Positions 2-58,566 of a stretch of DNA of 64,000 bases are shown one piece after another; the first letter of the stretch is position 1, and each line of letters starts with the position of its first letter. Made by a program: the position numbers and the translations under genes. Source of the stretch: Candidatus Daviesbacteria bacterium (GTDB lineage: Bacteria > Patescibacteriota > Microgenomatia > Daviesbacterales > UBA10151). The notes under the pieces are model-generated. The model ran no database searches. It saw only the letters and a program-made list of their open reading frames with translations, and was not told the DNA's origin. The DNA lies in assembly GCA_016187035.1 (NCBI GenBank), contig JACPKL010000008.1, positions 99,990-163,989 of the forward strand, written 5' to 3'.

Positions 2-178
2 GGTTTGGGGAATGGGATGGGGATTAGTGTGGGCAGACTTAGGGAGGATGGCAATAATGGTTTTAAGTTCATTGGATTGTCGCACAACACCATCAGGGGT
101 GCAGCTGGCGGGGCAATCTTAACTGCTGAACTATTAGTAAAAAAAGGATACTTACAAATGTCATCCCGAACAAAGTGA
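2..178 (+). CDS. asd: aspartate-semialdehyde dehydrogenase, 3' end (gene begins upstream of window)
   Basis: Frame-2 translation ..GISVGRLREDGNNGFKFIGLSHNTIRGAAGGAILTAELLVKKGYLQMSSRTK*. SHNTIRGAAGGAIL..AELL is the conserved ASD C-terminus. The last codons and TGA 176-178 lie inside repeat 159-245. Confidence 0.6.
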   Translation, partial: GLGNGMGISVGRLREDGNNGFKFIGLSHNTIRGAAGGAILTAELLVKKGYLQMSSRTK

Positions 179-245
179 GGGATCTTCCAAGTAGAGTGGT
201 AAATATCCTACCATGGAAGATTCCTCGCTAATGCTCGGAATGACA
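159..245. repeat. palindromic mini-element, type A (TGTCAT...ATGACA termini), full copy
   Basis: TGTCATCCCGAA at 159-170 pairs with CTCGGAATGACA at 234-245. An inner pair is GAGGGATCTTCC / GGAAGATTCCTC. Same termini and inner modules as copies at 13458, 32005 and 44969. Confidence 0.8.
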
Positions 246-257
246 ATAGTGGAAACT

Positions 258-1451
258 ATGGCAAAAATTAATTCAAATTATAATAAGCTGCCTCCCTCTT
301 ATTTCTTCTTGGAAATGGGCAAAAAAGTCAAAGCTTTTCAAGAGAAAAACCCTGAGGTAGAGATTTTAAGACTGGGTATTGGCAATACTACTGAGGCTCT
401 AACTTCCACAGTGATTAAAGGGTTAACAAAAGGGGTGCAGAAACTGGCTGATGTTAAAACATACACAGGTTATGGAGATGAGCAGGGTGACAGCAGACTC
501 AGAACAGCCTTAGCAGCATATTACCAAAAAAGCCATATTAATCTTGATCCCCAGGAAATTTTTATCAGTGATGGAGCCAAGCCGGACTGTGCCAATATAT
601 TATCTATTTTCAGTGACAGCAGTATAGTGGCAGTAGCTGATCCGGCCTATCCGGTTTATGTTGACAGCTCAATTATAGCCGGCAAAAAAGTTATTTATAT
701 GAGATGTAGTCAGGAGAATGGATTTATCTCTGATTTGCCATCAAAAAAGGCAGACTTGATTTTTCTTTGCAGCCCTAATAACCCGACAGGGGTGGTGTTA
801 ACAAAGAAGAAACTCCAGGTATTTGTTGAATATGCTAGGAAAACTGCGGCAGTGATTATTTTTGATGCTGCATATGCAGAGTATATTCAAGATCAAGATC
901 TGCCAAAAAGTATTTATGAAATCCCCGGGGCAAAAAGCTGCGCCATAGAAATAAACAGCTTTTCCAAATGGGCAGGATTTACCGGGGTGCGTTTAGGTTG
1001 GAGTGTGGTGCCGATGGATTTGATAGTTGAGGGGGAAAAGAAGGGGAAAATTAACAGTCTTTGGAACAGGCGGCAAACTACCATGTTTAATGGTGCCTCA
1101 AATATCGCCCAGGAAGGCGGTTTGGCAGTTCTGTCTCAGGCAGGACAAAAAGAGTGCAAAAAACTGGTTGATTATTATATGAGAAATAGTGAAATTATTA
1201 AAGAAGGTTTGGAAAGCATGGGGTTGAAAGTTTTTGGCGGAGTAAATGCCCCATACCTTTGGGTAAAATGTCCAAAAGGATTAACTTCCTGGGAATTTTT
1301 TGATAAATTGCTAAATGATGCTCATGTTGTGTCAACTCCTGGTTCAGGATTTGGGAGTATGGGTGAAGGGTATCTAAGATTATCTGCTTTTGGACATAGG
1401 GAGAATATTAAGAAAGCAGTGGAAAGCATTAAAAAGAATTTAGTTTTATGA
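258..1451 (+). CDS. dapL: LL-diaminopimelate aminotransferase
   Basis: ORF 213-1451. MAKINSNYNKLPPSYFF matches DapL N-termini, and NSFSKWAGFTGVRLGW is the PLP-lysine motif. Start moved to ATG 258 because 213-257 is repeat sequence. Flanked by asd and lysA. Confidence 0.8.
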   Translation: MAKINSNYNKLPPSYFFLEMGKKVKAFQEKNPEVEILRLGIGNTTEALTSTVIKGLTKGVQKLADVKTYTGYGDEQGDSRLRTALAAYYQKSHINLDPQEIFISDGAKPDCANILSIFSDSSIVAVADPAYPVYVDSSIIAGKKVIYMRCSQENGFISDLPSKKADLIFLCSPNNPTGVVLTKKKLQVFVEYARKTAAVIIFDAAYAEYIQDQDLPKSIYEIPGAKSCAIEINSFSKWAGFTGVRLGWSVVPMDLIVEGEKKGKINSLWNRRQTTMFNGASNIAQEGGLAVLSQAGQKECKKLVDYYMRNSEIIKEGLESMGLKVFGGVNAPYLWVKCPKGLTSWEFFDKLLNDAHVVSTPGSGFGSMGEGYLRLSAFGHRENIKKAVESIKKNLVL

Positions 1452-2692: not shown

Positions 2693-2710
2693 GATTGAAT
2701 GATCTGGAAA

Positions 2711-3109: not shown

Positions 3110-3369
3110 AAAGAAATAGGGGATTTTCTTGATTTTTTCTTTAACCCCTTTTTCCATAAAATATCATTATCCAGAGGACCTTCTTTCCATACTCCAGCAA
3201 CTTTTGCTAGAAGTTTTCTTTTCTCTTCAGGGGCCGCTTTTAAAAGTGCAAAAGGCTTGCCTCCTTTTGTCAGGATTACAGTATCAGTTTTAGCAAGGTT
3301 TTTAGAAATCTTGCCAAAGTTGCGACGAAGTTCGGTAATAGGTATTATTTTAGAGAGAGAGCCGTTCAT
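3106..3369 (-). CDS. Phd/YefM-like antitoxin
   Basis: Small ORF overlapping the vapC start. IPITELRRNFGKISKNL..VILTKGGKPFALL resembles the Phd/YefM N-terminal fold. ATG 3369 preferred over TTG 3387. Confidence 0.6.
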   Translation of the reverse strand: MNGSLSKIIPITELRRNFGKISKNLAKTDTVILTKGGKPFALLKAAPEEKRKLLAKVAGVWKEGPLDNDILWKKGLKKKSRKSPISL

Positions 3370-3504: not shown

Positions 3505-4125
3505 ATGAAAGATATCTTGGGAACATTGCCTGATTGGGTTATTAAAGAACATATTAAAAAGGGAATAATTAAAATTGATCCTTTGCCAAAAGATTGGGAA
3601 GAAATGGTGGATGAGGTGACTATTGATTTTCATTTAGGAAGCAAACTCAGGGTTTTCTCTCATGAAGGTTTAAATACCATAGATACCAAATACACTACCA
3701 AAGAGGATATGGAGTCTTCAATGAGGCTGGTAGAATTAAAGAGTGGCCAGCCATTTATCTTAACTGAACATGATTTTGTGATTGCTACAACTAAGGAAAG
3801 ACTAACACTGCCTGATAATATTGTGGGGCATTTACATGGTAAATCTTCTTTAGCCAGACTGGGAGTGGTGGTTCATTCCACTGCTGCCAGGTTTGACCCG
3901 GGTTGGGATGGCCATCCTGTTTTGGAATTTGGAACTTTCCTAAAGGGGAAAAAACTGGTTATTTATGAAGGTTCTCCAATTTGCGCTTTTTCCTTTGAGA
4001 AACTGGCAGCGCCTGTGGAGAGGTCATACAAAATGAGCCCTAATAACAGGTATGGGGGATCAGACTTGCCTGAAGTGTCTAATATTACAGGGAGAAACAA
4101 ACATGTCAGTAATCGGCATAGATGA
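3505..4125 (+). CDS. dcd: dCTP deaminase
   Basis: GKSSLARLGVVVHSTAARFDPGWDGHPVLEF aligns with the Dcd core, including the catalytic Glu of the (I/V)LEF motif. Confidence 0.8.
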   Translation: MKDILGTLPDWVIKEHIKKGIIKIDPLPKDWEEMVDEVTIDFHLGSKLRVFSHEGLNTIDTKYTTKEDMESSMRLVELKSGQPFILTEHDFVIATTKERLTLPDNIVGHLHGKSSLARLGVVVHSTAARFDPGWDGHPVLEFGTFLKGKKLVIYEGSPICAFSFEKLAAPVERSYKMSPNNRYGGSDLPEVSNITGRNKHVSNRHR

Positions 4126-4657
4126 AATCCTGCTAAGAGTAAAAACAGAAAAACTAATAGAAAATCTTTCCAATAGAGAGTTGAAAAATCCTGAAGGAAT
4201 TGGAATTGATTTAAGATTAGGAGCTGTTTATAAAATAACAGCAGGGGGGGCATTTATAGAAGCGGGTTTGGGTAAAAGAAAAGGAGTAACAACAGAATTA
4301 GTTGCTCAGTTTAAAAAAAAAGGCAGGCAGAAAAAGATAACCATAAAGCCGGGTGATTATTATTTGGTTTCTACTTTGGAAACTATTAATACCCCAAAAG
4401 ATCTAATGCCTGTTATTTTTCCCAGAACTAGTTTATTTAGAGCAGGACTGTTTCTTTTAAATTCCAAAACAGACCCAGGTTATAAAGGTAGCTTAACAAT
4501 GGGTTTAAAAAATTTATCAGAATTTGAGGTTAAGCTGCAACTTGGGGCCAGAATCTGTAATGTGGTATTTTTTAAAATTGATGGGAAAACTAACCCCTAC
4601 AGGGGTCAGCATCAAGGTGGTAGAATAAGTCCTGAGAATGTCGAACAACAAGTCTAA
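4103..4657 (+). CDS. dCTP deaminase/dUTPase-family paralog, dUTPase-like
   Basis: PRTSLFRAGLFLLNSKTDPGYKGSLTMGLKNLS..GARICNVVFF. Same fold as dcd, but the deaminase Glu position reads TMGLKN, resembling the dUTPase motif. ATG 4103 is preceded by GGAGAAAC and overlaps dcd by 23 nt. Confidence 0.6.
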   Translation: MSVIGIDEILLRVKTEKLIENLSNRELKNPEGIGIDLRLGAVYKITAGGAFIEAGLGKRKGVTTELVAQFKKKGRQKKITIKPGDYYLVSTLETINTPKDLMPVIFPRTSLFRAGLFLLNSKTDPGYKGSLTMGLKNLSEFEVKLQLGARICNVVFFKIDGKTNPYRGQHQGGRISPENVEQQV

Positions 4658-5678
4658 ACCCCGATTAAATCGGGGTAAACACCCTGAATATCAATACCTG
4701 GATCTTTTAAAAGAAGTCTTGGAAACAGGGATCAGGAAAGTAGATAGAGGAACTAACATTGTTTTATATTCTCTTTTTGGCAGACAGACCAGGTATGATT
4801 TATCATATGGTTTTCCTCTTTTAACCACTAAAAAAGTCTACTGGAAAGGTGTCTTACATGAGCTGTATTGGTTTATGTCCGGCCAGACCAATATCAAATA
4901 TTTAGTAGATGAAGATGTGCATATTTGGGATGATTATCCATATAAAATATATAAATTCAAAAGTCAAAATATTTCGCAAAGCGAAACTTCCTTCGGAAGA
5001 GCAAAAGTCAAAAGTATTTTAAGCAAAGAGGAGTTTATAGAGAAGATTAAGACAGATAAAAGCTTTGCCAAAAAATGGGGGAATTTACCAAGGATTTATG
5101 GGGAGATGTGGAGAAAATGGCCTACAAGAGTAAAGGGTCGGACAATAGATCAATTAAAATGGGTTCTTCAGGAGATGGAAGATGATCCTGATGCCAAAAA
5201 CTTAATAGTGAATTCCTGGAATCCGGAATATCTTTATACCATGGCTACCAATAAAGACGCTTCCCGTTTCCCAATCTGCCACAACTCATATCAAATAAGT
5301 AATAGAAATGGAAAATTGTCACTTCAGCTATACCAAAGGTCCTCAGATCTTTTCTTAGGAGTACCGTTTAATATAGCCAGCTATGCTCTTTTAACCATGA
5401 TTCTAGCTCAGATAGCAGGATTAGAATCTGGAGAATTTATCCACACTTTTGGAGATGTGCATATTTATGAAAATCATATTCCGCAAGTTAAAGAGCAGCT
5501 GAAAAGAAAACCCAGGCCTTTTCCTAAAGTTAAAATCGATCCGTCTGTTAAAAATCTTGATGATTTTAAACCTGAACTGGTTACCTTGGAAGGATATGAT
5601 CCTTATCCGATGTTAAAAGCACAATTAACTGTGGCAGGGGGACTGTATGATCCTAAAACAGGCCAAATGGCTGGTTGA
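4638..5678 (+). CDS. thyA: thymidylate synthase ThyA (long form with large internal insert)
   Basis: YQYLDLL, FPLLTTKKVYWKGVLHELYWF, catalytic FPICH, SSDLFLGVPFNIASYALLT, HIYENH. Confidence 0.9.
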   Translation: MSNNKSKPRLNRGKHPEYQYLDLLKEVLETGIRKVDRGTNIVLYSLFGRQTRYDLSYGFPLLTTKKVYWKGVLHELYWFMSGQTNIKYLVDEDVHIWDDYPYKIYKFKSQNISQSETSFGRAKVKSILSKEEFIEKIKTDKSFAKKWGNLPRIYGEMWRKWPTRVKGRTIDQLKWVLQEMEDDPDAKNLIVNSWNPEYLYTMATNKDASRFPICHNSYQISNRNGKLSLQLYQRSSDLFLGVPFNIASYALLTMILAQIAGLESGEFIHTFGDVHIYENHIPQVKEQLKRKPRPFPKVKIDPSVKNLDDFKPELVTLEGYDPYPMLKAQLTVAGGLYDPKTGQMAG

Positions 5679-6299: not shown

Positions 6300-7178
6300 A
6301 TGTATAAATTACCTACACTACAAGAATTATTAGAAGCAGGTGTTCATTTTGGGCATCAGGTTAGACGTGGTCATCCACGGATGAAGCCGTATATTTTTGG
6401 TGTTAGAGAAGGGGTTCATGTGATTGATTTAATTCAATCAGAAAGTTATCTTAAGCAAGCTTGTGAGTTTGTATACGAACTTGGAAAAAGTGGAAAAGTG
6501 TTGCTTTTTGTTGGAACTAAAAAACAAGCCAGACCTATTATTGAGGAATCAGCTAAAAAACTACAAGCTCCATACATGGCAGAAAGATGGATGGGAGGAT
6601 TTTTAACTAATTTTGAAGAAATTAAAAAAAGAATTAAACTGTTAAAAGATTTAAAAGAACAAAAAGCTAAAGGAGATTTGTCCAGATACACTAAAAAAGA
6701 GCAGCTTCTATTAGATAGAGAAATGGATAAACTCCATAAAGATTTTGTAGGTGTGATGGATTTAGCAACACTTCCTGATGCTATCTTTGTGGTTGATGCA
6801 GTCACAGATAATATTGCTATCAGGGAAGCAAATAGATTAGGCATTAAAGTTATAGCAATTGCAGATTCAAATTGTAATGTTTCAGAAATAGTTTATCCGA
6901 TTCCTGGTAATGACGATGCTATAAAATCAATTAAAATATTAGTAGAAGCTATAGCTAGTGCTTATGGAGAAGGCAAGGAGGAAGCAAGAAAAGCAGCAGA
7001 GAAAGAGGCCAAAAGAGTGCAAAAGGAAGCCCTTCGATCCCGAGGTCCTCAGGACCGAGGGGCTCAGGGTAAACAGGTTGAAGAAGATGTGGATAAAGAT
7101 TTAGCTGAGCAAGTAGCAGTTGTTGAAGAACAAGTGGAAAAGCAAGCAATTAAAGAAGCAGAAAGAATCGTTGAGTAA
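6300..7178 (+). CDS. rpsB: 30S ribosomal protein S2 with charged C-terminal extension
   Basis: LLEAGVHFGHQVRRGHPRMKPYIFG.. and an AIADSNC block. About 50 extra Glu/Lys/Ala-rich residues at the C-terminus. Confidence 0.95.
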   Translation: MYKLPTLQELLEAGVHFGHQVRRGHPRMKPYIFGVREGVHVIDLIQSESYLKQACEFVYELGKSGKVLLFVGTKKQARPIIEESAKKLQAPYMAERWMGGFLTNFEEIKKRIKLLKDLKEQKAKGDLSRYTKKEQLLLDREMDKLHKDFVGVMDLATLPDAIFVVDAVTDNIAIREANRLGIKVIAIADSNCNVSEIVYPIPGNDDAIKSIKILVEAIASAYGEGKEEARKAAEKEAKRVQKEALRSRGPQDRGAQGKQVEEDVDKDLAEQVAVVEEQVEKQAIKEAERIVE

Positions 7179-10540: not shown

Positions 10541-10828
10541 TAATTAAATAAGCAAGCTTGTTGCTTGCGCAATAAAAGCGTTTGAGTTTGGTTTCCCGCC
10601 AAACAAGCTGAGTAGGGTGACTACTACAGAAGGACACTGTAAAAATAGCTCCAAAGTGTGTTGCTTCGTAAGCTCAGCATAAACTAGCTTAAAGAAGATA
10701 AAGCATTAAGAATCTTTTATTAGACACACCATAGGGTGTGTTTTTTTAAGGTTAAAGCAAGGTGGTACCACGAGTCTTTACCTCGTCTTTGCAATAGCTT
10801 AATGCTGTTGTAAAGAGGAGGTTTTTTA
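10541..10828 (+). promoter_or_regulatory. T-box riboswitch leader (probably tRNA-Pro responsive)
   Basis: T-box sequence AAGCAAGGUGGUACCACGAG at 10755-10774. Antiterminator: A1 10757-10760/10789-10792, a GGUGGUA bulge, A2 10770-10774/10782-10786. Mutually exclusive 18-bp helix 10781-10798/10804-10821. Stem III-like hairpin 10724-10741. Downstream operon ends in proS. Confidence 0.6.
10781..10827 (+). terminator. T-box expression platform: terminator helix that also sequesters the SD
   Basis: CCTCGTCTTTGCAATAGC / GCTGTTGTAAAGAGGAGG (18 bp, 1 mismatch, 2 G-U pairs), loop TTAAT, then TTTTTT 10822-10827. The 3' arm contains AGGAGG 10816-10821, 7 nt before ATG 10829. Confidence 0.6.
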
Positions 10829-13393: not shown

Positions 13394-13431
13394 CCCTAGG
13401 TGTCATCGTATTTCCACCTCCGAGGTAGGAT
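13394..13431. repeat. repeat type D (CCCTAsGTGTCATCGTATTTCyACCTCsGAGGTAGGAT)
   Basis: 35/38 nt identical to 43067-43104. Both copies start 4-5 nt after a stop codon (proS, purH). Confidence 0.8.
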
Positions 13432-13435
13432 GGCA

Positions 13436-13558
13436 CTTAATTAGTATTTCCCAGTAATGTCATTGCGAGCGAACACAGTGAGCGTGGCAATCTTCCCCGA
13501 TCATGGAAGATTCCTCGGATGCCTCGGAATGACAAATCGGCTGGGAAGAACTAATTAG
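13436..13558. repeat. outer palindrome whose centre is occupied by a type A element (nested insertion)
   Basis: CTTAATTAGTATTTCCCAG 13436-13454 against CTGGGAAGAACTAATTAG 13541-13558 (inverted, about 16/18). Confidence 0.6.
13458..13534. repeat. palindromic mini-element type A, full copy
   Basis: TGTCATTGCGAGCGAA..GTGGCAATCTTCC..GGAAGATTCCTCGG..CTCGGAATGACA. Termini and GGAAGATTCCTCG module shared with copy 159-245. Confidence 0.8.
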
Positions 13559-14001: not shown

Positions 14002-15111
14002 ATGATAACAAAAAATATTAATAAACTAGCTAAATCTTTGGTGGAAGTAAATATTACAGTGCCTTGGATTGATCTGCAACCTCAATGGGATCAGACTTTA
14101 CAAAAAATGGCAGCTGATGTAGAGATTGCAGGTTTTAGGAAAGGGCAAGCCCCCCTGAACTTGGTGGAAGGCCAGCTTGGCACCAGACTTCAGGATGAAG
14201 TTTTAAAAGTAGCCATGCCGAATTTTTTGATTGAGGCTCTTAAAGGTGCGGATATTGTCCCTATTGATTATCCTAAGTATAACTTGATCTCCTTTGTTCA
14301 GGGATCACAGCTTGAGTTTAAAGCTGCAGTTACCAACAGACCTTATGTAACAGTTGGTGATTATAAAGCTATAATAGCAGCAAGGCCTTCTATAAAACCA
14401 GCTACTGAAGAAGAAATACAAAAGGTTATAGACGATTTATTTAAAAAATGGAAAGTCAGAAATCCCATAGTCCAACAAAATCAGCAACAAGGAGGTTCGA
14501 TTAGTTTTCAAGGAGGACAAGCACAAAATGAGATTGCCACGTCGTCCCTCGATAAACTCGGGATTCCTCGCAATGACAATGTTGTAGACGCCCCGAATGA
14601 TGATTTTGCCAAGGCTATGGGAGCAACTTCTTTAATTAACTTAAGAGAGAAGGTCAGAAAAGATTTAGATGCTAATATTTCATATAACAATGAATTAGAT
14701 TATGAGGAAGCTATTCTACAGGAGGTTGAGAAAATTACTACAGTAGAGCTGCCAGACATTTTGATCCAGGATGAATTAAATAGAATGCTGGTTTCGCTGC
14801 AAAGAAGAGTGGCTGATATGGGGCTTTTGCTTGAGGATTATCTGAAAGGCCAGGGTAAAACTCTGGAGCAGTTAAAAAATGAATGGATGCCACAAGCAGA
14901 AAAAAATGTCAGGATGGAGTTAGGGCTTGCCGAGATTGCCAGAAAAGAAAATGTCACTATTTCAGATACTGAGCTTCAGGCCGAAGTTGATAAAATCCAG
15001 GATGGGCGGGTTAAGAAACAGTTTGAAGCACAAGAACCAAGGTTGCATCTTAGACATGCATTGAGACAGACTCGGACACTAGACTTACTAAAGAAAATGG
15101 TAGGAGGATAA
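14002..15111 (+). CDS. tig: trigger factor lacking the FKBP PPIase domain
   Basis: The N-terminal ribosome-binding domain has GFRKGQAP (the GFRxGxxP signature). The C-terminal arm domain aligns (..DDFAKAMGA..LREKVRKDL..). The middle is a roughly 40-aa Gln/Gly-rich linker instead of the roughly 100-aa PPIase domain. Confidence 0.8.
   Translation: MITKNINKLAKSLVEVNITVPWIDLQPQWDQTLQKMAADVEIAGFRKGQAPLNLVEGQLGTRLQDEVLKVAMPNFLIEALKGADIVPIDYPKYNLISFVQGSQLEFKAAVTNRPYVTVGDYKAIIAARPSIKPATEEEIQKVIDDLFKKWKVRNPIVQQNQQQGGSISFQGGQAQNEIATSSLDKLGIPRNDNVVDAPNDDFAKAMGATSLINLREKVRKDLDANISYNNELDYEEAILQEVEKITTVELPDILIQDELNRMLVSLQRRVADMGLLLEDYLKGQGKTLEQLKNEWMPQAEKNVRMELGLAEIARKENVTISDTELQAEVDKIQDGRVKKQFEAQEPRLHLRHALRQTRTLDLLKKMVGG
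14531..14578. repeat. type A half-element inside tig, in frame
   Basis: AGATTGCCACGTCG..GGATTCCTCGCAATGACA is the reverse complement of the left arm of the copy at 32005 (TGTCATTGCGAGGAATC..CGACGTGGCAATCT). Encodes (E)IATSSLDKLGIPRNDN. Confidence 0.7.
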
Positions 15112-22197: not shown

Positions 22198-22237
22198 CCG
22201 AGTCTTCGAGGTCATCCTGAGCTTGTCGAAGGATCTG
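22198..22237. repeat. repeat type B (GTCATCCTGAGCTTGTCGAAGGATC core)
   Basis: CTTCGA / TCGAAG arms flank GGTCATCCTGAGCTTG. Positions 22214-22230 are the exact reverse complement of 23955-23971 in cysS. Confidence 0.75.
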
Positions 22238-23247: not shown

Positions 23248-24698
23248 AACTGTATAATACCTTGACTCGAAAAATAGAAAATTTTACTCCCATAAAACCG
23301 TCTTATGTAGGCATGTATACCTGTGGGCCTACAGTATATGACTATACCCATATTGGTCATCTTCGAAAGTATGTTGGTGATGATATTTTAAGAAGGATTT
23401 TAGAAGCCAATGGATATTCAGTTAAACATGTGATGAATATTACAGATGTGGGACATCTTGTTTCAGATCAGGACCAGGGAGATGATAAATTGGAGAAAGG
23501 TGCCAAGGAAAGAGGCCAGACTGTTTGGGAAGTTGCTAAATATTTTGAGGATTATTTTTTTAGATCAACTAAACTTGTAAATATTGAAAGGCCATCAGTT
23601 GTATGTCGTGCTACAGAGCATATAGGAGAACAGATTAAATTAATTCAAAAATTAGAAGAAAAAGGTTTTACTTACCAAACTGAAGAAGCTATTTATTTTG
23701 ATATTTCTAAATTCCCACATTACGGAAAATTGTCTGGGCAAGATTTGAAAGAGAAACAAACTGGGGTTAGAGGAGATGTAGTAGTGGATCCTAACAAGAA
23801 AAACCCTCAAGACTTTGCTTTGTGGTTTTTTGTGGTAGGAAGGTTTGTAACGCATAGTATGAGATGGGCTTCTCCTTGGGGTGAGGGGTTTCCCGGCTGG
23901 CATATTGAGTGTTCTGCCATGTCAATGGAATATTTAGGGAATAGTTTTGATCCATTCGACAAGCTCAGGATCAATGGTGAGCAAACCCGTACTGAGCGAA
24001 GTCGAAGTAGTCGAACCATTGATATACATACAGGAGGAATAGATCATATTCCGGTTCACCATACTAATGAGATTGCCCAGTCAGAGGCAGCTTCCGGAAA
24101 AATGTTTGTTAGAGTTTGGGTGCACCATAATTTTTTAATAGTAGATGGAGAGAAGATGTCTAAATCAAAAAAGAACTTTTATAGAATTGATGAAATTTTA
24201 TCCAAAGGCTTTGATCCTTTAGCCTTGAGGTATCTGTTTTTAACAGCTCACTATAGGGATAGCTTAAATTTTACCTGGAAATCTTTAGAAAGCACTCAGA
24301 ATGCTTTAAACAATTTGAGAGAAGAGATTAGGTTGTGGGAGCAGCCTAAAGGGAGTGTCGGACAATATTGGCAGAAGTTTGCCGAGGCTGCTAATAATGA
24401 CCTGAATACCCCTCAGGCAGTGGCAATTATGTGGGAGATGGTTAAATCAGATATCCCAACGTTTCAAAAGAGCAAAGATCTTGCAAAGATGGATGAAATA
24501 TTAGGGTTAGGGCTGCAGGATTTTATTGGCCAAAAGATTGAAGTGCCAAAGGAAGTTATGGAACTGGTGAATATTAGAGAAACTGTAAGGAAAAAAGGAG
24601 ATTATAAAGAGTCGGATAAACTGCGCCATCAGATTAAAAAGTTAGGCTTTGAAGTAGAAGATACCCCATCTGGTCCAAAAGTCAAACAAAGTGTATAA
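23244..24698 (+). CDS. cysS: cysteinyl-tRNA synthetase carrying a 24-codon in-frame insertion
   Basis: HIGH region (YDYTHIGHLR), WHIECSAMS, HHTNEIAQSEA, KMSKS. The canonical LG..FDIHGGG block is split as LGNSFD[24 aa]IHTGG. Confidence 0.9.
   Translation: MKLYNTLTRKIENFTPIKPSYVGMYTCGPTVYDYTHIGHLRKYVGDDILRRILEANGYSVKHVMNITDVGHLVSDQDQGDDKLEKGAKERGQTVWEVAKYFEDYFFRSTKLVNIERPSVVCRATEHIGEQIKLIQKLEEKGFTYQTEEAIYFDISKFPHYGKLSGQDLKEKQTGVRGDVVVDPNKKNPQDFALWFFVVGRFVTHSMRWASPWGEGFPGWHIECSAMSMEYLGNSFDPFDKLRINGEQTRTERSRSSRTIDIHTGGIDHIPVHHTNEIAQSEAASGKMFVRVWVHHNFLIVDGEKMSKSKKNFYRIDEILSKGFDPLALRYLFLTAHYRDSLNFTWKSLESTQNALNNLREEIRLWEQPKGSVGQYWQKFAEAANNDLNTPQAVAIMWEMVKSDIPTFQKSKDLAKMDEILGLGLQDFIGQKIEVPKEVMELVNIRETVRKKGDYKESDKLRHQIKKLGFEVEDTPSGPKVKQSV
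23952..24023. repeat. 72-nt palindromic mini-element (type B-related) inserted in frame in cysS
   Basis: Flanked by TTGAT at 23947-23951 and 24019-24023. Internal inverted repeat TTCGACAAGCTCAGGA / TACTGAGCGAAGTCGAA. 17-nt exact match (reverse complement) to 22214-22230. Confidence 0.8.
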
Positions 24699-30708: not shown

Positions 30709-32051
30709 ACATATTGGTTATTGGACAAAATGGCAGAGAACATGCATTAGCAGAGAGTTATGCTAAAAGTAAAAAAGTAAAGAAAGTAATTATGACTCCT
30801 GGAAATGGTTTAACTGATTTTCAAAATCCCAAAATAAAAAATTATCCAGAGGTTGAGATGATGAATTTTGAAGGGATTGTTAAGATTTGTAAAAAAGAAA
30901 AAATAGATTTAGTGGATGTTCCTCAAGAGAATATTATCGAAGCAGCTTATGTTGATAGATTAGCTGATTTGGGATTCAAAGTATTTGGTCCCACCAAAGC
31001 AGCTTCACAATTAGAATGGGATAAGGAATGGTCCAGAAACTTTATGGTTAAATATAATCTTCCCATACCAAAGTTTAAATCATTTACCAATAGAAAAGAA
31101 GCAATTAAATATGTCAATAAGTTAAATGATAAGCTTTTGTTTATTAAGGCAACTGGTTTAGCTTATGGTAAAGGAGTAATTAGGGCTGAAAATAAAAAAC
31201 AGGCCATGGAGGCAATCAAAGGAATGAGCGAATTTGGAAAATCTGGAGAAACCTTTCTTATAGAAGAAGGATTAGTTGGGGAGGAGTTTTCTCTTTTTGC
31301 TTTGTGTGATGGAAAAAATTTACAGATAGTAAGTTTTGCTCAAGATTATAAAACAGCCTTTGATGGAGATATGGGGCCCAATACTGGGGGGATGGGAAGT
31401 GTAGCACCAGCAGGAGTTGTTACTGATACGATGATACGTATCATCAAAGCAGAGATTTTTGAACCGCTGATGCAGGGGATGCAAAAAGAGGGAAGGCCGT
31501 ATAGAGGAATTTTATATCTTGGAGGTATTCTGACTAAAGGTGGCGTGAGAGTCATAGAGTTTAATGCCCGGTGGGGCGATCCTGAAGCAGAAGTAATTTT
31601 ACCTGCTATTAAAACAGATTATCTAAAAATTGTTGAAGCAGTTTTAGCTGGTCAGTTGAAAACTTTAAAAGTTGAGATGGACAATAAAGTCAGAATTAGT
31701 GTGGCAGGTTGTTCTAAAGGATATCCACGAGATTATTCAAAAGCTAAAGGGAAAGAGGTAATCGGGTTAGATGAGGTAATCAAACTGCCAGGGATTACTA
31801 TCTTTGGCGCGGGGATTAAAAAAGCAGACAAAAAGTTTTTGGTAAGCGGCGGACGCGTCTTTTATTTAGTAGCGGACGGAAAAAATGTGATAGAGGCAAG
31901 ACAAAAGGCATATCAGGCAATGGCCTTGATAAATATAGAAGGAGATAATTTGCATTATAGAACAGATATTGGATGGAGGGATGTTGAAAGACTTAAGAAT
32001 CAGTTGTCATTGCGAGGAATCGGACTGAGCGAAGCGACGTGGCAATCTTGA
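30705..32051 (+). CDS. purD: phosphoribosylamine-glycine ligase
   Basis: MNILVIGQNGREHALA, ATP-grasp core, GGMGS. ATG 30705 is preceded by AAGGAGG. The last roughly 15 codons and the stop lie in repeat 32005-32098. Confidence 0.9.
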   Translation: MNILVIGQNGREHALAESYAKSKKVKKVIMTPGNGLTDFQNPKIKNYPEVEMMNFEGIVKICKKEKIDLVDVPQENIIEAAYVDRLADLGFKVFGPTKAASQLEWDKEWSRNFMVKYNLPIPKFKSFTNRKEAIKYVNKLNDKLLFIKATGLAYGKGVIRAENKKQAMEAIKGMSEFGKSGETFLIEEGLVGEEFSLFALCDGKNLQIVSFAQDYKTAFDGDMGPNTGGMGSVAPAGVVTDTMIRIIKAEIFEPLMQGMQKEGRPYRGILYLGGILTKGGVRVIEFNARWGDPEAEVILPAIKTDYLKIVEAVLAGQLKTLKVEMDNKVRISVAGCSKGYPRDYSKAKGKEVIGLDEVIKLPGITIFGAGIKKADKKFLVSGGRVFYLVADGKNVIEARQKAYQAMALINIEGDNLHYRTDIGWRDVERLKNQLSLRGIGLSEATWQS

Positions 32052-32098
32052 TTGAAGAAAGATTCCCACGCCCCGCCGTGGCGGGGCTCGGAATGACA
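32005..32098. repeat. palindromic mini-element type A, full copy with GC-rich inner hairpin
   Basis: TGTCATTGCGAGGAATCGGACTGAGCGAAGCGACGTGGCAATCTT .. GCCCCGC-CGTG-GCGGGGC .. CTCGGAATGACA. Confidence 0.8.
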
Positions 32099-32109
32099 GA
32101 AAGGAAACT

Positions 32110-38540: not shown

Positions 38541-38595
38541 CACCTCGAAGGGGAGAGAGTCCGGTGGACTCTTGAGAAAGCCCACCTTCGAGGTG
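38541..38595. repeat. type C palindromic element, full form
   Basis: Perfect 11-bp arms CACCTCGAAGG 38541-38551 / CCTTCGAGGTG 38585-38595. Inner hairpin AGAGTCC-GGTG-GGACTCT. On the minus strand the arm reads GAGGTG, 7 nt before the purA ATG. Confidence 0.85.
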
Positions 38596-38667: not shown

Positions 38668-39687
38668 ATGGGAATAAAGAAACATACAATTGTAACATTA
38701 GGTTCTCATTCTGCGTTGCAGATCCTCAAAGGTGCAAAAGATGAGGGATTTAAAACTGCTGTCATAGCAACCCCAGATAGAATTGCTCTTTATACCAGCT
38801 ACAAAAATTTCATTGATGAAATAATGGAAGTGAAAACCTGGAAAGATTTTCCAAGTTTAGAAAAAGACCTATTGGAAAGAAATGCCATTATTATTCCCCA
38901 TGGTTCATTTGTGGCATATTTAGGAATGGCAGAAAACAAACAAATGCAAGTTTCCTATTTTGGCAATAAGTTAGTTTTAGATTGGGAAGAAAATAGAAAG
39001 ATGCAAAGGTTGTGGCTTGAAGAGGCGCAAATAAAAGTACCACACAAGTTTAAAAGAGGGGATAGAATTGACAGGCCAGTAATAGTTAAATCATACGGAG
39101 CCGCCGGGGGTAAAGGGTATTTTGTCTCCCGGAATCAAAAAGAATTTGATGAAAAACTAAAAAGCTTTAGTGAAGAAAGATTTATTGTTCAGGAGTATGT
39201 AATTGGAGTACCAGTCTACTTTCACTTTTTCTATTCACCCCTAACTTCCAAGGTTGAAGTAATGAGTATTGATAAAAGATATGAGACTAATGTTGATTCC
39301 TTGGGTAGAATTCCTGCCAAAAACCAAAGAGGGTTAAACATTGACCCTTCTTTTGAAGTAGTTGCCAATATCCCTATGGCGATCAGGGAATCACTTTTAG
39401 CAGAGGCTGTTTCAATGGCAGAAAGGGTAATACAAGCTTCGCAAAAGCTGATATCTCCCAAAGGGCTTTTTGGACCATTTTGTCTGGAAACAATTATTAC
39501 TTCAACTGAAGAAATTTATGCAATTGAGATATCTGCCAGGATTGTTGCCGGTACTAATTGTTTTATTAATGGCTCACCCTATACATATTTAAACTATAAT
39601 GAACCTATGTCAACAGGAAGAAGAATTGCCAGGGAAATTAAAAATGCTATTAAGTTAAATAAATTAAAAGAGGTGCTGGATGGATAA
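38668..39687 (+). CDS. purP: archaeal-type FAICAR synthetase PurP (ATP-grasp), paralog 1
   Basis: TLGSHSALQILKGAKDEGFKT.., IIPHGSFVAY, YFHFFYSPL, GPFCLETI. This is the pattern I recall from PurP (M. jannaschii MJ0136 family). Confidence 0.75.
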   Translation: MGIKKHTIVTLGSHSALQILKGAKDEGFKTAVIATPDRIALYTSYKNFIDEIMEVKTWKDFPSLEKDLLERNAIIIPHGSFVAYLGMAENKQMQVSYFGNKLVLDWEENRKMQRLWLEEAQIKVPHKFKRGDRIDRPVIVKSYGAAGGKGYFVSRNQKEFDEKLKSFSEERFIVQEYVIGVPVYFHFFYSPLTSKVEVMSIDKRYETNVDSLGRIPAKNQRGLNIDPSFEVVANIPMAIRESLLAEAVSMAERVIQASQKLISPKGLFGPFCLETIITSTEEIYAIEISARIVAGTNCFINGSPYTYLNYNEPMSTGRRIAREIKNAIKLNKLKEVLDG

Positions 39688-40753
39688 ACAATATACCATT
39701 GCTGTTTTAGGGTCTCACTGCGCTCTTGATGTTTGCAGAGGGGTAAAAGATGAGGGTTTTAAAACATTGGTTATTTCCCAAAGGGGTAGAGAAAAAACTT
39801 ATCAAAAGTATTACAAAAATATCGTTGATGAATGTCTGGTTTTAGATAAGTTTAAAGATATTCTAAAGCGGGAAATTCAGAAAATTTTAAGAGATAGAAA
39901 CGCTATTTTTATTCCCCACAGGTCTTTTGAGGTTTATATAAATGATTATGATGCTATTGAGAAAAAATTTAGGGTACCAATATTTGGTAATAGATTTCTT
40001 TTGCGGTATGAAGAAAGAAATCAAAAACCTAATCAATATGATTTGCTTACTAAAGCAAATATCAGATACCCCAAACAATTTAAAGATCCTAAGGATATAG
40101 ATAGGCTTTGTATTGTTAAGGTTTTAGAAAAGGAAAGGGGATATGAGCGAGCATTCTTTTTGGTAGAAAATTATGAGCAATATAAATTGGAGTCTGAAGA
40201 TAAAATATTAAAAGGACAAATTACAAAAGAACAATTAGAAAATGCTGTTATAGAAGAATTTATAATTGGTGTGCAAGTTAATTTTAATTTTTTCTATTCT
40301 CCAATTTTAAAAAGATTAGAATTAATTGGTACTGATACCAGAAGGCAAACTAATATTGAAGGTTTGGTGAGAATTCCTGCCTTATATCAACAATCTATTT
40401 TGGAAAAAGTATCTATTAAATATGAAGAAGCAGGACATATTGCAGTAACTGTTTTGGAATCTCTTTTGGAAGAGGTTTTTGCAGTAGGAGAGAAATTTGT
40501 AAAAGCATCCCAGGATTTAATACCGCCAGGTGTGATTGGGCCATTTGGGTTGCAAACAGTCATCACTGCAGGTCCTCCTAAAAAAGAAATTATTGTTTTT
40601 GATGTTTCACCAAGGATGCCGGGAAGTCCAGGGATATTTGCAACACCATATAGCGGATATTTATATGGACAAAATATTTCGATGGGAAAAAGAGTGGCAA
40701 TGGAAATTAAAGATGCGATAGAGAGTAGAAAGTTAGATGGGATAGTAACTTGA
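39680..40753 (+). CDS. PurP-family ATP-grasp protein, paralog 2
   Basis: VLGSHCALDVCRGVKDEGFKT, FIPHRSFEVY, NFNFFYSPI, GPFGLQTVI. Collinear with paralog 1 and overlaps it by 8 nt. Confidence 0.7.
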   Translation: MDKQYTIAVLGSHCALDVCRGVKDEGFKTLVISQRGREKTYQKYYKNIVDECLVLDKFKDILKREIQKILRDRNAIFIPHRSFEVYINDYDAIEKKFRVPIFGNRFLLRYEERNQKPNQYDLLTKANIRYPKQFKDPKDIDRLCIVKVLEKERGYERAFFLVENYEQYKLESEDKILKGQITKEQLENAVIEEFIIGVQVNFNFFYSPILKRLELIGTDTRRQTNIEGLVRIPALYQQSILEKVSIKYEEAGHIAVTVLESLLEEVFAVGEKFVKASQDLIPPGVIGPFGLQTVITAGPPKKEIIVFDVSPRMPGSPGIFATPYSGYLYGQNISMGKRVAMEIKDAIESRKLDGIVT

Positions 40754-43062: not shown

Positions 43063-43066
43063 AAGA

Positions 43067-43104
43067 CCCTACGTGTCATCGTATTTCTACCTCGGAGGTA
43101 GGAT
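43067..43104. repeat. repeat type D
   Basis: 35/38 identical to 13394-13431. Begins 4 nt after the purH stop. Confidence 0.8.
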
Positions 43105-44488: not shown

Positions 44489-44985
44489 CTAGGGTTCTTA
44501 TAATATCTGCATCTGAGTCTGATTTGATAGTGATGAGAGAGGCTGCAAAAGTTTTGGATGAATTTGGGGTTGAATATGAATTAACAATTTCTTCAGCCCA
44601 TAGATCACCTGATAGATCGGTAAAGTTAGTCAAAAATTTTTATGGCAGTGATGGAAAAGTAATTATTTGCGGAGCAGGGTTGGCCGCGCATTTGGCAGGG
44701 GTGGTGGCAGCACATTTTCCTTTGCCAGTGATAGGGGTTCCTTTAAAAAACAAAGGAGGATTAGAAGGGTTAGAGGGATTAGATGCATTGCTTTCTACAA
44801 TGCAGATGCCCTCAGGTATTCCAGTTGCTACTGTTGGAATAGATAATGCCAAGAATGCAGGAATCTTAGCAGTACAAATTTTAGCTACCTCAGATAAAAA
44901 CTTAGAAAGAAAATTGGTAGATTATAAGAAAAAGTTAGCAAGAATTGTGGAAGAAAAGGCAAAACAATTGTCATCCCGTACTTGA
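44485..44985 (+). CDS. purE: N5-CAIR mutase (class I PurE-like)
   Basis: SAHRSP, GAGLAAHLAGVVAA..PVIGVP, MPSGIPVATV. The AAHL loop resembles class I enzymes. The last 5 codons and the stop lie in repeat 44969-45039. Confidence 0.85.
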   Translation: MTRVLIISASESDLIVMREAAKVLDEFGVEYELTISSAHRSPDRSVKLVKNFYGSDGKVIICGAGLAAHLAGVVAAHFPLPVIGVPLKNKGGLEGLEGLDALLSTMQMPSGIPVATVGIDNAKNAGILAVQILATSDKNLERKLVDYKKKLARIVEEKAKQLSSRT

Positions 44986-45039
44986 TATGGGATCTATATA
45001 AATAATATTTTATGGATTCTCGCTTTCGCGGGGATGACA
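44969..45039. repeat. palindromic mini-element type A (AT-rich centre)
   Basis: TGTCATCCCGTA .. CGCGGGGATGACA termini, and GGATTCTCG is related to the GGAAGATTCCTCG module. Confidence 0.7.
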
Positions 45040-54207: not shown

Positions 54208-54273
54208 ATGATTAATATTGTTATGTTAAGAAAATCTTTAATTCTCCTTGCTGTCCTTATAAGCCAAGTTTAA
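54208..54273 (+). promoter_or_regulatory. ilv leader peptide ORF (21 codons, 12 Ile/Leu/Val)
   Basis: MINIVMLRKSLILLAVLISQV*. AGGA lies just upstream. The stop codon abuts attenuator region 2. Confidence 0.5.
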
Positions 54274-54305
54274 CTTGGAGGGAGACTAAAGATTTAAATT
54301 TTAAG

Positions 54306-54332
54306 ATCTCCCTAAGCAGGGAGATTTTTTTT
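54306..54332 (+). terminator. attenuator terminator (regions 3:4)
   Basis: ATCTCCCT 54306-54313, loop AAGC, AGGGAGAT 54318-54325, with the stem running into an 8-T run at 54325-54332. The competing antiterminator is AGGGAGA 54279-54285 with TCTCCCT 54307-54313. Confidence 0.65.
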
Positions 54333-54387
54333 GGAGAAAAAAATTATCTACCTACAGCTATCAGCTGTCAGATAAAAAATAAAAAAT

Positions 54388-55366: not shown

Positions 55367-55378
55367 ACTACAAAACCT

Positions 55379-57064: not shown

Positions 57065-57537
57065 ACATCACTATTACCATTTACTCAGAAAACAAACCAG
57101 GAGTTCTTTACAGGATTGCCAATTTGTTTTTAAGAAGAAAAGTCAATATTGAATCCTTGACTGTGTCAGAAATTAAAAGCGAAGACAGATCCCGTTTTAC
57201 CATTGTAGTTAAAGAGGATTTGTCACTGGTTGCAAAAATTGCCAAACAGTTGGAAAGGATTATTGAAGTAAGCAGCGTAGAAATTCATACTGATAATGAG
57301 TTGATTTTTAAAGATGCAGCGTTAATTAAAATAAGTAAAAATCCAAAGGTGGTAAAGAAATTAGATAGTATTATTAGTCTGCTTAAAGCAAGTATAGCTT
57401 ATCAAAACGATAAATATATCATCATTGAGAAATTGGGGACAGAGGAAGATATAGATTTGTTAGTATCAACCTTAGAACCTTTTGTTAAAGAAACAGTGAA
57501 ATCAGGACGTATTGCTTTGCCAAAAAACGGACAGTAA
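57061..57537 (+). CDS. ilvN: acetolactate synthase small (regulatory) subunit
   Basis: ACT domain ..ENKPGVLYRIANLF.RR..NIESL.V. Confidence 0.85.
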   Translation: MNITITIYSENKPGVLYRIANLFLRRKVNIESLTVSEIKSEDRSRFTIVVKEDLSLVAKIAKQLERIIEVSSVEIHTDNELIFKDAALIKISKNPKVVKKLDSIISLLKASIAYQNDKYIIIEKLGTEEDIDLLVSTLEPFVKETVKSGRIALPKNGQ

Positions 57538-57556
57538 GATATACTTAGTCAAATTT

Positions 57557-58549
57557 ATGAAAAAGATTTATTACGATCAGGATACAGATTTGAAAGTATT
57601 AAGGAATAAAACCGTAGCTGTTTTTGGGTATGGCAGCCAGGGTTCTGCCCAGGCTCAAAACATGAGAGACTCAGGGGTTTCAGTTATTTTGGGTTTAAGA
57701 AGAGATGGCAGCTCCTGGTCTCAAGCTATGGAGGATGGTTTTCAGGTTTTTGAATTTAAGGAAGCTGCCAAACGGGCAGATATTTTGCATTTCCTGCTGC
57801 CTGATGAAAGGCATTTAGAAGTGTTTGAAGAAATTAAAGAGTTTATTACACCCGGTAAAACAATTGTTTGCAGCCATGGGTTTAATTTCCATTTTCAGGT
57901 GATTAATCCGCCAAAAGAAGTAGATGTAATTATGGTTGCTCCCAAAGCTCCGGGTCCGACTGTCAGGAGAGAATATGTTAATGGTTTTGGAGTGCCTGCT
58001 TTAATTGCTGTTTTTAAAAATGCTTCAGGAAAAGCCAAGGAAACTGCCCTGGCCCTGGCTAAGGCTAACGGCCATACGCGGGTGGGGGTTTTTGAAACAA
58101 CATTTAAATTTGAAACAGAAACAGATCTTTTTGGGGAGCAGACAGTGCTTTGCGGGGGAGTGGTGGAGTTGATGAGAATGGGTTTTGACACACTGACAGC
58201 AAATGGTTATCCGCCGGAAATTGCTTATTTTGAGTGTGTCCATGAGATGAAATTAATTGTCGATTTGATCTATCAGGGCGGTATGCTGGGCATGTATAAA
58301 AAAGTCTCAAACACTGCTAAGTTTGGAGGACTGACTGTTGGCCCGAAAGTTATTCCAGCCCAAACTAAAAAAGTAATGCAAAAAGCCTTAGATAAAATTA
58401 AATCAGGACAATTTAAAGCTAGTTGGATAGATAAAGAATTTAAAAAAGATAAATTAAAAAATTTAGATAAGATGTTGGATATGGTGTCAAAATGGCAGGT
58501 TGAGAAAGTAGGCAAGATTATCCGTCAGTTTGCAGGACTATCGGACTGA
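57557..58549 (+). CDS. ilvC: ketol-acid reductoisomerase
   Basis: VAVFGYGSQGSAQAQNMRDSG, GFNFHF, LFGEQTVLCGG. ATG 57557. The stop region overlaps repeat fragment 58535-58566. Confidence 0.9.
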   Translation: MKKIYYDQDTDLKVLRNKTVAVFGYGSQGSAQAQNMRDSGVSVILGLRRDGSSWSQAMEDGFQVFEFKEAAKRADILHFLLPDERHLEVFEEIKEFITPGKTIVCSHGFNFHFQVINPPKEVDVIMVAPKAPGPTVRREYVNGFGVPALIAVFKNASGKAKETALALAKANGHTRVGVFETTFKFETETDLFGEQTVLCGGVVELMRMGFDTLTANGYPPEIAYFECVHEMKLIVDLIYQGGMLGMYKKVSNTAKFGGLTVGPKVIPAQTKKVMQKALDKIKSGQFKASWIDKEFKKDKLKNLDKMLDMVSKWQVEKVGKIIRQFAGLSD

Positions 58550-58566
58550 ACGAAGCGAAGGAGATC
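58535..58566. repeat. type A internal fragment
   Basis: GGACTATCGGACTGAACGAAGCGAAGGAGATC against GGAATCGGACTGAGCGAAGCGACGTGGCAATC (32016-32047), about 26/32 by eye. Contains the ilvC stop codon. Confidence 0.55.

Follow-up and report, generated by a model that had tools for sequence, protein, structure and literature searches.

Small palindromic repeats at gene ends and within conserved genes of a Candidatus Daviesbacteria genome

The DNA analysed here belongs to a Candidatus Daviesbacteria bacterium (assembly GCA_016187035.1, contig JACPKL010000008.1, positions 99,990 to 163,989 of the forward strand). The whole stretch of 64,000 nt is called the window, and our subject is a set of small palindromic repeats that lie at the ends of its genes and, in frame, within them. 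The window has a G+C content of 33–38%, nearly all of its genes are on the plus strand, and by the compiled gene list 95.6% of it is coding and 4.4% intergenic. It carries the housekeeping genes dapL, a lysA-like gene, dcd, thyA, folA, rpsB, tsf, frr, proS, tig, dnaX, glyA, folD, ybaB, recR and cysS, and it also encodes the full purine pathway, suf genes and an ilv/leu operon. Its PurH is 78% identical to PurH of Daviesbacteria RIFCSPLOWO2_01_FULL_39_23. The window holds no tRNA gene and no Rfam match at the gathering score. Identical DNA was recovered in independently assembled Logan contigs, and thus the features described here are not artefacts of a single assembly. We found 13 element loci, which total 714 nt or 1.1% of the window. 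The initial annotation of this DNA had listed at least 14 copies of four types, A to D; all the copies it named are present at the places it gave or a few bases off, but the tally by locus is 13.

Types A and B, together with a half copy in the trigger factor gene (tig) and a remnant at the end of ilvC, are one family, which we call family 1. Its unit of about 25–45 nt consists of an unpaired (T/C)GTC tag, a stem that starts with A,T, a loop, the complementary stem and a tail that begins with C. The stems are ATTGC/GCAAT, ATTCC/GGAAT, ATCCC/GGGAT and ATCCT/AGGAT, and the loops often contain a GAGC...CGA motif or a GC-rich mini-hairpin. The four full type A copies of the window, to which no strand is assigned, are all dimers with the tags outside, three of the four being heterodimers, and they fold into long hairpins (z −2.9 to −9.4). 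The TGTC tag was present at 8/8 outer ends of these dimers and at the tig half copy, with CGTC at the ilvC remnant and GGTC at the type B copy.

The first type A copy (159–245; z −9.4) is an inverted dimer of TGTC-tagged units with the stems ATCCC/GGGAT and ATTCC/GGAAT, which is matched at E 3e-5 by an nhmmer profile of copies from outside the window, introduced below. It provides the last seven codons and the stop of the upstream asd-like open reading frame (ORF), whose product ends in QMSSRTK, and it finishes 14 nt before the dapL ATG; as to the asd identity, this ORF is a 58-aa fragment without a Pfam match. The second (13458–13534; profile E 1.5e-10) joins an ATTGC and an ATTCC unit in the spacer downstream of proS. 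In the third (32005–32098; profile E about 2e-11), also a heterodimer, the loops of both units contain GC-rich mini-hairpins; purD gains 16 codons and its stop from this copy, with the tail QLSLRGIGLSEATWQS, and the element ends 11 nt before the purL ATG. The fourth (44969–45039; z −4.9) is decayed and AT-enriched, with two mismatches in its 5' arm. It supplies the last five codons and the stop of purE, so that PurE ends in LSSRT, and the reverse complement of its 3' unit (TGTCATCCCCGCGAAAGCGAGAATCC) translates as VIPAKARI.

The other loci of family 1 are on the plus strand. At 14524–14578 a single unit, corresponding to the 3' half of a dimer, is in frame in the linker of trigger factor, where it encodes EIATSSLDKLGIPRNDN (profile E 1e-4). 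The type B copy at 22209–22235 is a single unit, GGTC-ATCCT-GAGCTTGTCGA-AGGAT-C; it starts 12 nt past the stop of ybaB, and 27 nt separate it from recR. At 23952–24023 an insert of 72 nt (24 codons) is in frame in cysS between ...GNSFD and IHTGG. This insert had been taken as a second type B copy; it does hold the type B core, but it is a composite of a reverse-oriented tagless B-type unit and a second palindrome, ATCAATGGT...ACCATTGAT, that carries the module ACTGAGCGAAG, and it is bracketed by TTGAT direct repeats. The decayed single unit at 58521–58566 has its CGTC tag at about 58521, matches the 5' side module of 32005–32098 at 18/19 positions, and spans the last codons and the stop of ilvC, the product of which ends in GLSD.

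Types C and D make up the remaining five loci and share the palindrome ACCTCGRAGGT. Type C folds as a hairpin of 34 nt, whose 11-bp stem is CACCTCGAAGG/CCTTCGAGGTG. Its copy at 34732–34765 (+), CACCTCGAAGGAGTCAAAGCCCACCTTCGAGGT(A), is in frame in purL and encodes HLEGVKAHLRG (z −4.0), which with PFDKLRINGEQTRTERSRSSRT and LSLRGIGLSEATWQS is among the peptides encoded by the elements. A decayed copy at 32330–32363 (+) is in frame in the N-terminal part of purL and retains a perfect 13-nt palindrome, CACCTCGGAGGTG, at 32350–32362, which is also found in relatives. The third copy is a 55-nt variant with an extra internal hairpin (38541–38595, no strand; z −4.3) between the divergent purA and purP genes, and through its minus-strand arm GAGGTG comes to lie 7 nt upstream of the ATG of purA. 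Type D begins with TGTC-AT, followed by a CTACCTCGGAGGTAG palindrome. One copy (13394–13431, +), in which the palindrome reads CCACCTCCGAGGTAGG, is 5–6 nt past the proS stop, and the other (43067–43104, +) begins 4 nt past the purH stop and leaves 10 nt to the ATG of purB; within-window BLASTN aligned 13394–13431 with 43066–43104 at 36/39 identical positions. All four types had been proposed to form a single superfamily. Our data separate them into two families, as the only link between A/B and C/D is the TGTC-AT start of type D, which is weak. Type D may be a hybrid of the two families or a derivative of family 2 (types C and D). The arms CACCTC/GAGGTG of the type C and D palindromes resemble an anti-Shine-Dalgarno sequence paired with a Shine-Dalgarno sequence (38541–38595, 43087–43101 and 32350–32362).

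The matches between loci are short, 17–39 nt in pairwise BLASTN within the window, and a generic repeat finder run over the whole window gave mostly AT-rich noise. Both results would be expected if the repeats were chance matches among GC-rich patches of an AT-rich genome, or assembly artefacts, an explanation to which we give practically no weight. The motif counts far exceed those in shuffled sequence, the same sequence is present in the independent Logan contigs, and hundreds of copies exist outside the window. The exact type A terminus TGTCATYSCGAG occurs six times against an estimated 0.03 by chance; its matches form inverted pairs 53–70 nt apart at 159–245, 13458–13534 and 32005–32098, with a lone arm at 14567–14578. 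When up to two mismatches were allowed it was not above chance, with nine matches against 6.7 expected. The type B 17-mer ATCCTGAGCTTGTCGAA was found exactly twice, in opposite orientations (0.09 expected), and the module ACTGAGCGAAG four times at up to one mismatch (0.36 expected). The CACCTCG(A/G)AGG core, which had been pointed out as common to types C and D, is strongly over-represented, since ACCTCSRAGG has 10 matches in the window, equal to five palindromic sites, against 0.17 matches expected.

The external profile also recognises the window copies. A scan of IMG/VR viral contigs for TGTCATYSCGA-N45-75-TCGSRATGACA gave 70 stretches with 85 matches, and the profile was built from 74 unique copies on unrelated viral contigs, chosen to avoid circularity. 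It recognised three full type A copies of the window and the half copy at 14524–14578; it had no match to the decayed copy at 44969 or to types B, C and D. The type A copies on viral contigs share one plan, in which TGTCAT-YS-CGAG is followed by a variable GC-rich mini-hairpin, CG-x-RSR-ATC-YC, a loop and the mirror image of the whole.

How these dimers are built was indicated by the outside copies. Among 78 type A dimers analysed, 54 were homotypic and 24 heterotypic (ATTGC, ATTCC, ATCCC and ATCGC types). In the heterotypic dimers the inner arm complements its own outer arm in 47 of 48 halves, while an arm matching the other half was seen in 1/48, with about 3% expected by chance. The pairing is thus conserved within each half, and the unit is therefore a self-folding hairpin and type A an inverted doublet of such units. 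This result bears on the earlier description of the repeats as MITEs (miniature inverted-repeat transposable elements), which is not supported. Classical MITEs would be deletion derivatives of an insertion sequence (IS) whose DDE transposase moves them by way of the terminal inverted repeats TGTCAT...ATGACA, and the small size of the elements, their terminal inverted repeats and the lack of a transposase of their own are all in keeping with such an origin. The covariation, however, is inside each half and not between the termini, and lone single units are common. Neither the 72 unique type A copies nor the 24 type C copies analysed showed a target-site duplication. Flank repeats of the former measured 0 nt (n = 53), 1 nt (n = 10), 2 nt (n = 7), 3 nt (n = 1) and 6 nt (n = 1), a distribution equal to chance, and those of the latter were all of length 0 (24/24). 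The flanks of type A showed merely a weak Y...R extension of the palindrome, and those of 24 distinct type C copies were pyrimidine-rich on the left side. No recurrent transposase was seen beside the 70 viral-contig copies, and for the related repeats with a CGTC tag the text of Di Nocera, De Gregorio and Rocco (PMC3733652) reports merely fortuitous transposase associations. We consider a MITE origin very improbable on these grounds.

Outside the window, family 1 was also recovered from phage-like contigs and from plasmids belonging to other phyla. The 17-nt type B core is present on 67 viral-contig stretches, mostly as a lone module preceded by TGTC, CGTC, CCTC or GCTC; some cores are in tandem, and others make up one side of a complete dimer or occur together with GCAATC-type arms. 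The outside copies thus mix the modules of types A and B, which have the same unit architecture, and the relation between the two types that had been noticed from their shared modules is borne out. Short tandem arrays of B-type units or dimers were observed on the viral contigs L198 (10313–10377), L193 and L143, for example three consecutive GCTCATCCTGAGCTTGTCGAAG, and they recall the clustered CGTC repeats that the text of PMC3733652 reports for Neisseria and Wolbachia. BLASTN of the window copy 32003–32100 against plasmids gave no match, while a canonical outside copy used as the query gave matches. The copy on plasmid pNL2 of N. aromaticivorans reads CGTCATTGCGAGCGTCGCGAAGCAATCCAG...CTCGCAATGACG with the tail CCA and plainly belongs to the type A family.

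Comparison with related genomes showed that the copies are dispersed and that their sites turn over. The sister-genome check proposed with the initial annotation gave sites that are not syntenic: relatives lack the window copies and carry their own elsewhere. The exact TGTCATYSCGAG terminus is absent from about 380 kb of purine loci in 22 Microgenomates relatives. The purE–purC spacer measures 77 nt in the window against 3–6 nt in the relatives L002 and L020, and orthologues have neither QLSLRGIGLSEATWQS at the end of PurD nor LSSRT at the end of PurE. L002 has a full dimer directly upstream of purH, and L010 has several copies, one of them within purH. A second Daviesbacteria genome (GCA_016183245.1, locus L277) is syntenic with positions 13–28.6 kb of the window and carries six element loci in 14.7 kb. 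They are in dnaX, in the folD–ybaB gap, in cysS (aa 344–372), in the gap between cmk and an M16 peptidase gene, and in the tig linker. The tig linker is the sole element site common to L277 and the window, and L277 holds two units there; its spacer orthologous to the 13458–13534 site has no such element. In trigger factor itself (14002–15111; 525–1667 in L277), Pfam recognises the N and C domains only (aa 4–146 and 212–364), and in place of the peptidyl-prolyl isomerase (PPIase) domain both Daviesbacteria genomes have a linker, about 65 aa long, with units of the repetitive extragenic palindrome (REP) kind.

Cysteinyl-tRNA synthetase (CysRS) gives a further example of this turnover. The window protein has a 24-aa insert, PFDKLRINGEQTRTERSRSSRTID, which follows SF(D) and precedes DIHTGG, so that it immediately adjoins the HxGGxD strand on its N-terminal side. 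None of the 18 orthologues aligned has this insert, and neither do the CysRS structures that have been solved. Three orthologues have element-coded inserts elsewhere in the protein (P0095, P0112 and P0113, reading VILGSEERATPES...SFARMT, VIARNEVTKQS...SLGMT and VIPSDSEESQ...APRND), and those of P0095 and P0113 are TGTC dimers at the DNA level. An AlphaFold2 model of CysRS from a 19-sequence alignment had a mean pLDDT of 42 and was too poor to use. In relatives the elements were found in frame in DnaX, CysRS, PurH and AspRS. For the window, at least three in-frame copies in conserved genes had been reported and we count four (trigger factor, CysRS and two in PurL).

Family 2 has a different distribution. 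JGI metagenomes scanned for AAAGCCCACCTTCGAGGT gave 52 stretches, of which about 20 were high-GC contigs without the left arm, near the estimated chance number. The remaining stretches were contigs of 35–44% G+C with the full hairpin CACCTCGAAGGAGTCAAAGCCCACCTTCGAGGTG, identical into the loop, or with 49- and 55-nt variants, and in all about 35 type C copies were found in low-GC metagenome contigs. On viral contigs, a search for gapped type C arms gave a single match, in coding sequence. Family 2 appears to be restricted to low-GC contigs resembling those of the Candidate Phyla Radiation (CPR). Twenty-two of 36 type C copies, two window copies included, are at least 40 codons inside long ORFs. 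The hairpin is read in four frames, as HLEGVKAHLRG, TSKESKPTFEV, PRRSQSPPSR and, antisense, TSKVGFDSFEV. By similarity of the translated ORFs, the host proteins include PurL, AspRS, HMG-CoA reductase, a SucC-like protein, topoisomerase I, mevalonate kinase, thiolase, a glycosyltransferase, an integrase and a pilin-like protein. Five AspRS orthologues carry type C in one and the same loop, where it comes in three length variants and is read in two frames. In other species, too, the two PurL sites of the window are filled. L255 and L263 hold full copies; the loop at 32330–32363 has a full copy in L263 and a variant in L003, and the PurL loops of L004–L006 are shorter and without the element. In L003 the hairpin loop is reverse-complemented and read in the other frame in both orthologous PurL loops (1638–1668 and 3990–4023, corresponding to 32330–32363 and 34732–34765), and at 1638–1668 the two stems have exchanged sides with respect to the loop. 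Such an arrangement suggests an inversion or an independent re-insertion.

The C and D palindromes could also be thought of as translational or transcriptional control sites of a purine regulon, or as operators of a dimeric regulator. All five C and D sites of the window are in or beside pur genes or proS, the copy at 38541–38595 sets GAGGTG just upstream of the purA start, and a type D copy is directly upstream of purB. Such a role is nevertheless very improbable, as the identical 34-mer, read in four frames, occurs within AspRS, HMG-CoA reductase, topoisomerase I, mevalonate kinase, glycosyltransferase, pilin-like and other ORFs, and as the PurL of L004–L006 does without it. The narrower candidate of a purine operator was rejected for the presence of the identical 34-mer in unrelated genes.

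The placement of the repeats relative to genes had been regarded as striking. The enrichment is real, since nine of the 13 loci fall between genes or across a stop codon in a window of which 4.4% is intergenic (binomial P about 5e-10). It is, however, no special property: in DNA that is 95.6% coding, with spacers of 50–80 nt that are largely the element itself, any tolerated intergenic insertion abuts a stop codon, and REPs are known from earlier work to be placed in this way. Clustering near stops is what purifying selection would produce and is not a measure of targeting. The proposal that the elements remodel protein termini and loops agreed with our results, as they supply C-terminal tails with stop codons and, in CysRS, PurL and trigger factor, occupy loops or linkers in frame. 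Two other candidates were set aside: a CRISPR array, because the copies are single and within ORFs, and an intein or intron, because the elements are too small and have no endonuclease.

Since most copies are directly 3' of coding regions, co-transcribed with them and able to form strong hairpins, it can be asked whether they are cis-acting RNA elements of the host, such as 3'-end stabilisers, processing sites or terminators in the pur, ilv and other operons, which would be kept by function. REPs have been proposed as RNA elements, according to the text of PMC3733652. Moreover, the type C element is 32/34 identical (94%) between the window and L255, where the flanking coding DNA is 69–71% identical. 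On the other hand, no T-run follows any copy checked (the sequences after the hairpins are ATAGTGG, AATCGGC, GAAAGGA, AGGATAT and ATATAGG), which led us to reject an intrinsic (Rho-independent) terminator, and the elements match no Rfam family even at E ≤0.5. Orthologous junctions in relatives are without elements, many copies are within ORFs in several frames and both orientations, and the same family is carried by phage-like contigs and by plasmids from other phyla. We therefore regard a host RNA element as unlikely, while a secondary RNA effect of the hairpins is possible.

The features of family 1 agree with a known kind of repeat. Di Nocera, De Gregorio and Rocco described in 2013 a superfamily of CGTC-tagged REPs with the families CGTC-1 to CGTC-4, which includes the dRS3 repeats of Neisseria and in which R. 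conorii RPE-6 is CGTC-1 and RPE-4 is CGTC-4 (PMC3733652). As given in the text of that paper, the tag is CGTC and often TGTC or CCTC, the stems start with A,T, and a short tail follows; for CGTC-1 to CGTC-4 the stem has 8–9 bp, the loop 4–5 nt and the tail is CCA. The repeats are mainly head-head dimers (tags outside), both homo- and heterodimers, mostly less than 20 bp from the 3' ends of ORFs, and their termini sometimes supply stop codons. Intragenic dimers encode 20–30 aa, in tRNA synthetases among others, and the authors note that there is "apparently" no dedicated transposase. The hosts they name belong to five phyla, mainly to Alphaproteobacteria, with N. aromaticivorans among the species, and their supplement lists the peptide VIPAKAGI for CGTC-1 in R. 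conorii and S. wittichii.

The window units share with these repeats, so far as the text describes them, the tag, the A,T-first stem, the self-folding, the tags-outside dimers, the 3'-end and in-frame positions and the absence of a transposase. The 3' unit of 44969–45039, with VIPAKARI against VIPAKAGI of CGTC-1, also has the form of an 8–9 bp stem and a 4–5 nt loop (ATCCCCGC-GAAA-GCGAGAAT-CC), and N. aromaticivorans carries the same ATTGCGAG...GCAAT dimer as type A. Types A and B therefore fit membership of the CGTC/TGTC-tagged REP superfamily, as judged by its description in the text of PMC3733652. A difference is the host, which here is a member of the Patescibacteria/CPR. Types A and B are thus a known kind of repeat in a phylum for which we found no earlier report.

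The Rickettsia palindromic elements (RPEs) of Ogata et al. (2000, 2002), as summarised in PMC2229807, PMC10969869 and PMC1779305, are palindromes of 100–150 bp, defined in Rickettsia, with several families that proliferate in a lineage-specific manner. From these summaries, the window elements resemble them as selfish palindromes in a reduced genome, in frame in conserved housekeeping genes and also intergenic, with no known transposase; target-site duplication is described as unresolved for RPEs. They differ in length (27–94 nt against 100–150 bp), and only RPE-4 and RPE-6 are tied to the CGTC family in PMC3733652, so that the link is indirect, through the equivalence with CGTC-1 and CGTC-4 and the likeness of VIPAKARI to VIPAKAGI. 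No paper joining RPEs with the CPR was found in our literature search. A paper on MITEs of Cardinium was discarded as a parallel, as it describes an unrelated derivative of the IS982 family.

The REP/REPIN–RAYT systems, reportedly treated by Nunvar in 2010, Bertels and Rainey in 2011 and Ton-Hoang in 2012, are said to be GTAG-tagged REP doublets mobilised by Y1/HUH transposases. The dimers of the window are similar to them as inverted doublets of self-folding units that can also fold as one long hairpin, are non-autonomous and lack target-site duplications. They differ in the tag, TGTC/CGTC against GTAG, and no RAYT gene was seen in the window, nor is one reported for the CGTC repeats. Bacterial MITEs such as Correia/NEMIS, ERIC, RUP and Nezha are likewise small, non-autonomous, hairpin-forming and sometimes fused in frame to ORFs, but they have TA or other target-site duplications and IS-related termini, neither of which was found for the window elements.

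Taken together, these data make it likely that the window holds two families of small palindromic repeats, non-autonomous and of the REP kind, which are dispersed and kept where they are harmless. The first description of the elements as dispersed, non-autonomous and REP-like is in line with this, as is the lack of a transposase in the window: among its ORFs of at least 100 aa no transposase match was found in Pfam, NCBIfam or PHROGs, and no Y1_Tnp-like ORF was present. We propose that the repeats would spread by inserting on single-stranded DNA, in a manner that depends on the hairpin and leaves no duplication, with catalysis in trans by an enzyme encoded outside the window, for which a RAYT-type HUH/Y1 transposase would be the obvious candidate. 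In a genome that is 96% coding, selection would then retain the harmless insertions, namely those in the bases just past stop codons, in last codons, or in frame in tolerant loops and linkers. An insertion in the last codons would give the protein a short tail and a new stop, and the hairpins may in addition act on the RNA, for instance by protecting mRNA 3' ends.

Several points weigh against this interpretation. The transposition step is one that we infer, no mobilising enzyme having been found in the window or beside the 70 viral-contig copies; the neighbours shared by these copies are structural genes of phages, which come from two sets of phage contigs related to one another. The two PurL sites and one AspRS site of type C, and the tig linker site, are filled in several species, and such shared sites could be old inherited insertions kept by selection rather than a sign of ongoing mobility. 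For type C, the shared sites may be old insertions homogenised by gene conversion or may be insertion hot spots. Type D was not found outside the window, in the viral contigs and the relatives' loci examined. Furthermore, most window units differ from the CGTC superfamily in having five Watson–Crick pairs with possible tandem G·A pairs, loops of 11–25 nt and the tail CTT or CTC.

CPR/Patescibacteria genomes are among the smallest and most streamlined, in which selfish repeats are unexpected, yet about 1% of the window is hairpin DNA of the REP type. Judged from the translated sequences, these repeats would rewrite C-termini and add 11–30 residues to essential enzymes, including a position beside the catalytic HxGGxD strand of CysRS. 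A pattern thought typical of Rickettsia thereby recurs in a free-standing ultra-small lineage, and the host range of the CGTC/TGTC REP superfamily is extended; gene-poor CPR genomes are a good place to seek its transposase. Many unusual tails, insertions and spurious ORFs in the annotation of CPR genomes are explained by the repeats, which may also confuse alignments, phylogenies and binning.

Type C is a compact and highly conserved hairpin, and its recurrence in the same protein loops allows target preference to be tested against selection. A full-text literature search found no paper that prints the type C sequence or its peptides, the only repeat or peptide matches being primer coincidences, and the family appears to be undescribed and of the same general kind as REPs. 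A bolder and rather doubtful suggestion is that the CACCTCGAAGGAGTCAAAGCCCACCTTCGAGGTG hairpin is an undescribed, active, CPR-specific element that inserts preferentially in particular surface loops of housekeeping enzymes and is kept near-identical by ongoing transposition or gene conversion. If this were true, its arms resembling Shine-Dalgarno and anti-Shine-Dalgarno sequences might act on translation or provide ribosome-binding sites. Type C and the TGTC REPs of phage contigs would then show that hairpin DNA, perhaps with phages as its carriers, continually remodels the smallest bacterial genomes at the level of their proteins.

Some other features of the window were observed. In the C-terminal tail of ribosomal protein S2, past the end of the Pfam S2 domain (aa 225), a GC-rich hairpin of up to 70% G+C (7017–7083, +) is in frame and encodes ...KEALRSRGPQDRGAQGKQ...; it matches none of types A to D and may be one more inserted palindrome. 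At 10601–10793 (+) there is a sub-threshold Rfam match to the T-box (35 bits, E 4e-4), and the conserved T-box motif AGGTGGTACCACG occurs at about 10762–10774, within a 366-nt gap upstream of amino-acid-kinase, tRNA-binding and proS genes, so that this region is probably a T-box leader in a CPR bacterium. Upstream of ilvE-ilvBN-ilvC-leuA-ilvD, the region 54210–54333 (+) has a Phe_leader-like Rfam match (38.7 bits, E 0.007), in which a 21-codon ORF encoding MINIVMLRKSLILLAVLISQV is followed by the hairpin GGGAGATCT...AGATCTCCC and then by GGGAGATTTTTTTT; it looks like an Ile/Leu/Val leader-peptide attenuator.

Pfam, NCBIfam and PHROGs gave no match for three of the ORFs of 100 aa or more. The region 62589–63951 includes a minus-strand ORF of 308 aa that has no match in these databases, adjoined by a Bro-N/phrog_15286 ORF, and it may be a phage-derived islet at the edge of the window. 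At 38668–40753, two tandem PurP-type genes (Pfam DUF1246/DUF1297) adjoin the bacterial-type purH. The thymidylate synthase encoded at 4638–5678 has 346 aa, of which aa 19–331 cover the 266-position Pfam profile, and its extra residues, about 48 in number, are around aa 100–150.

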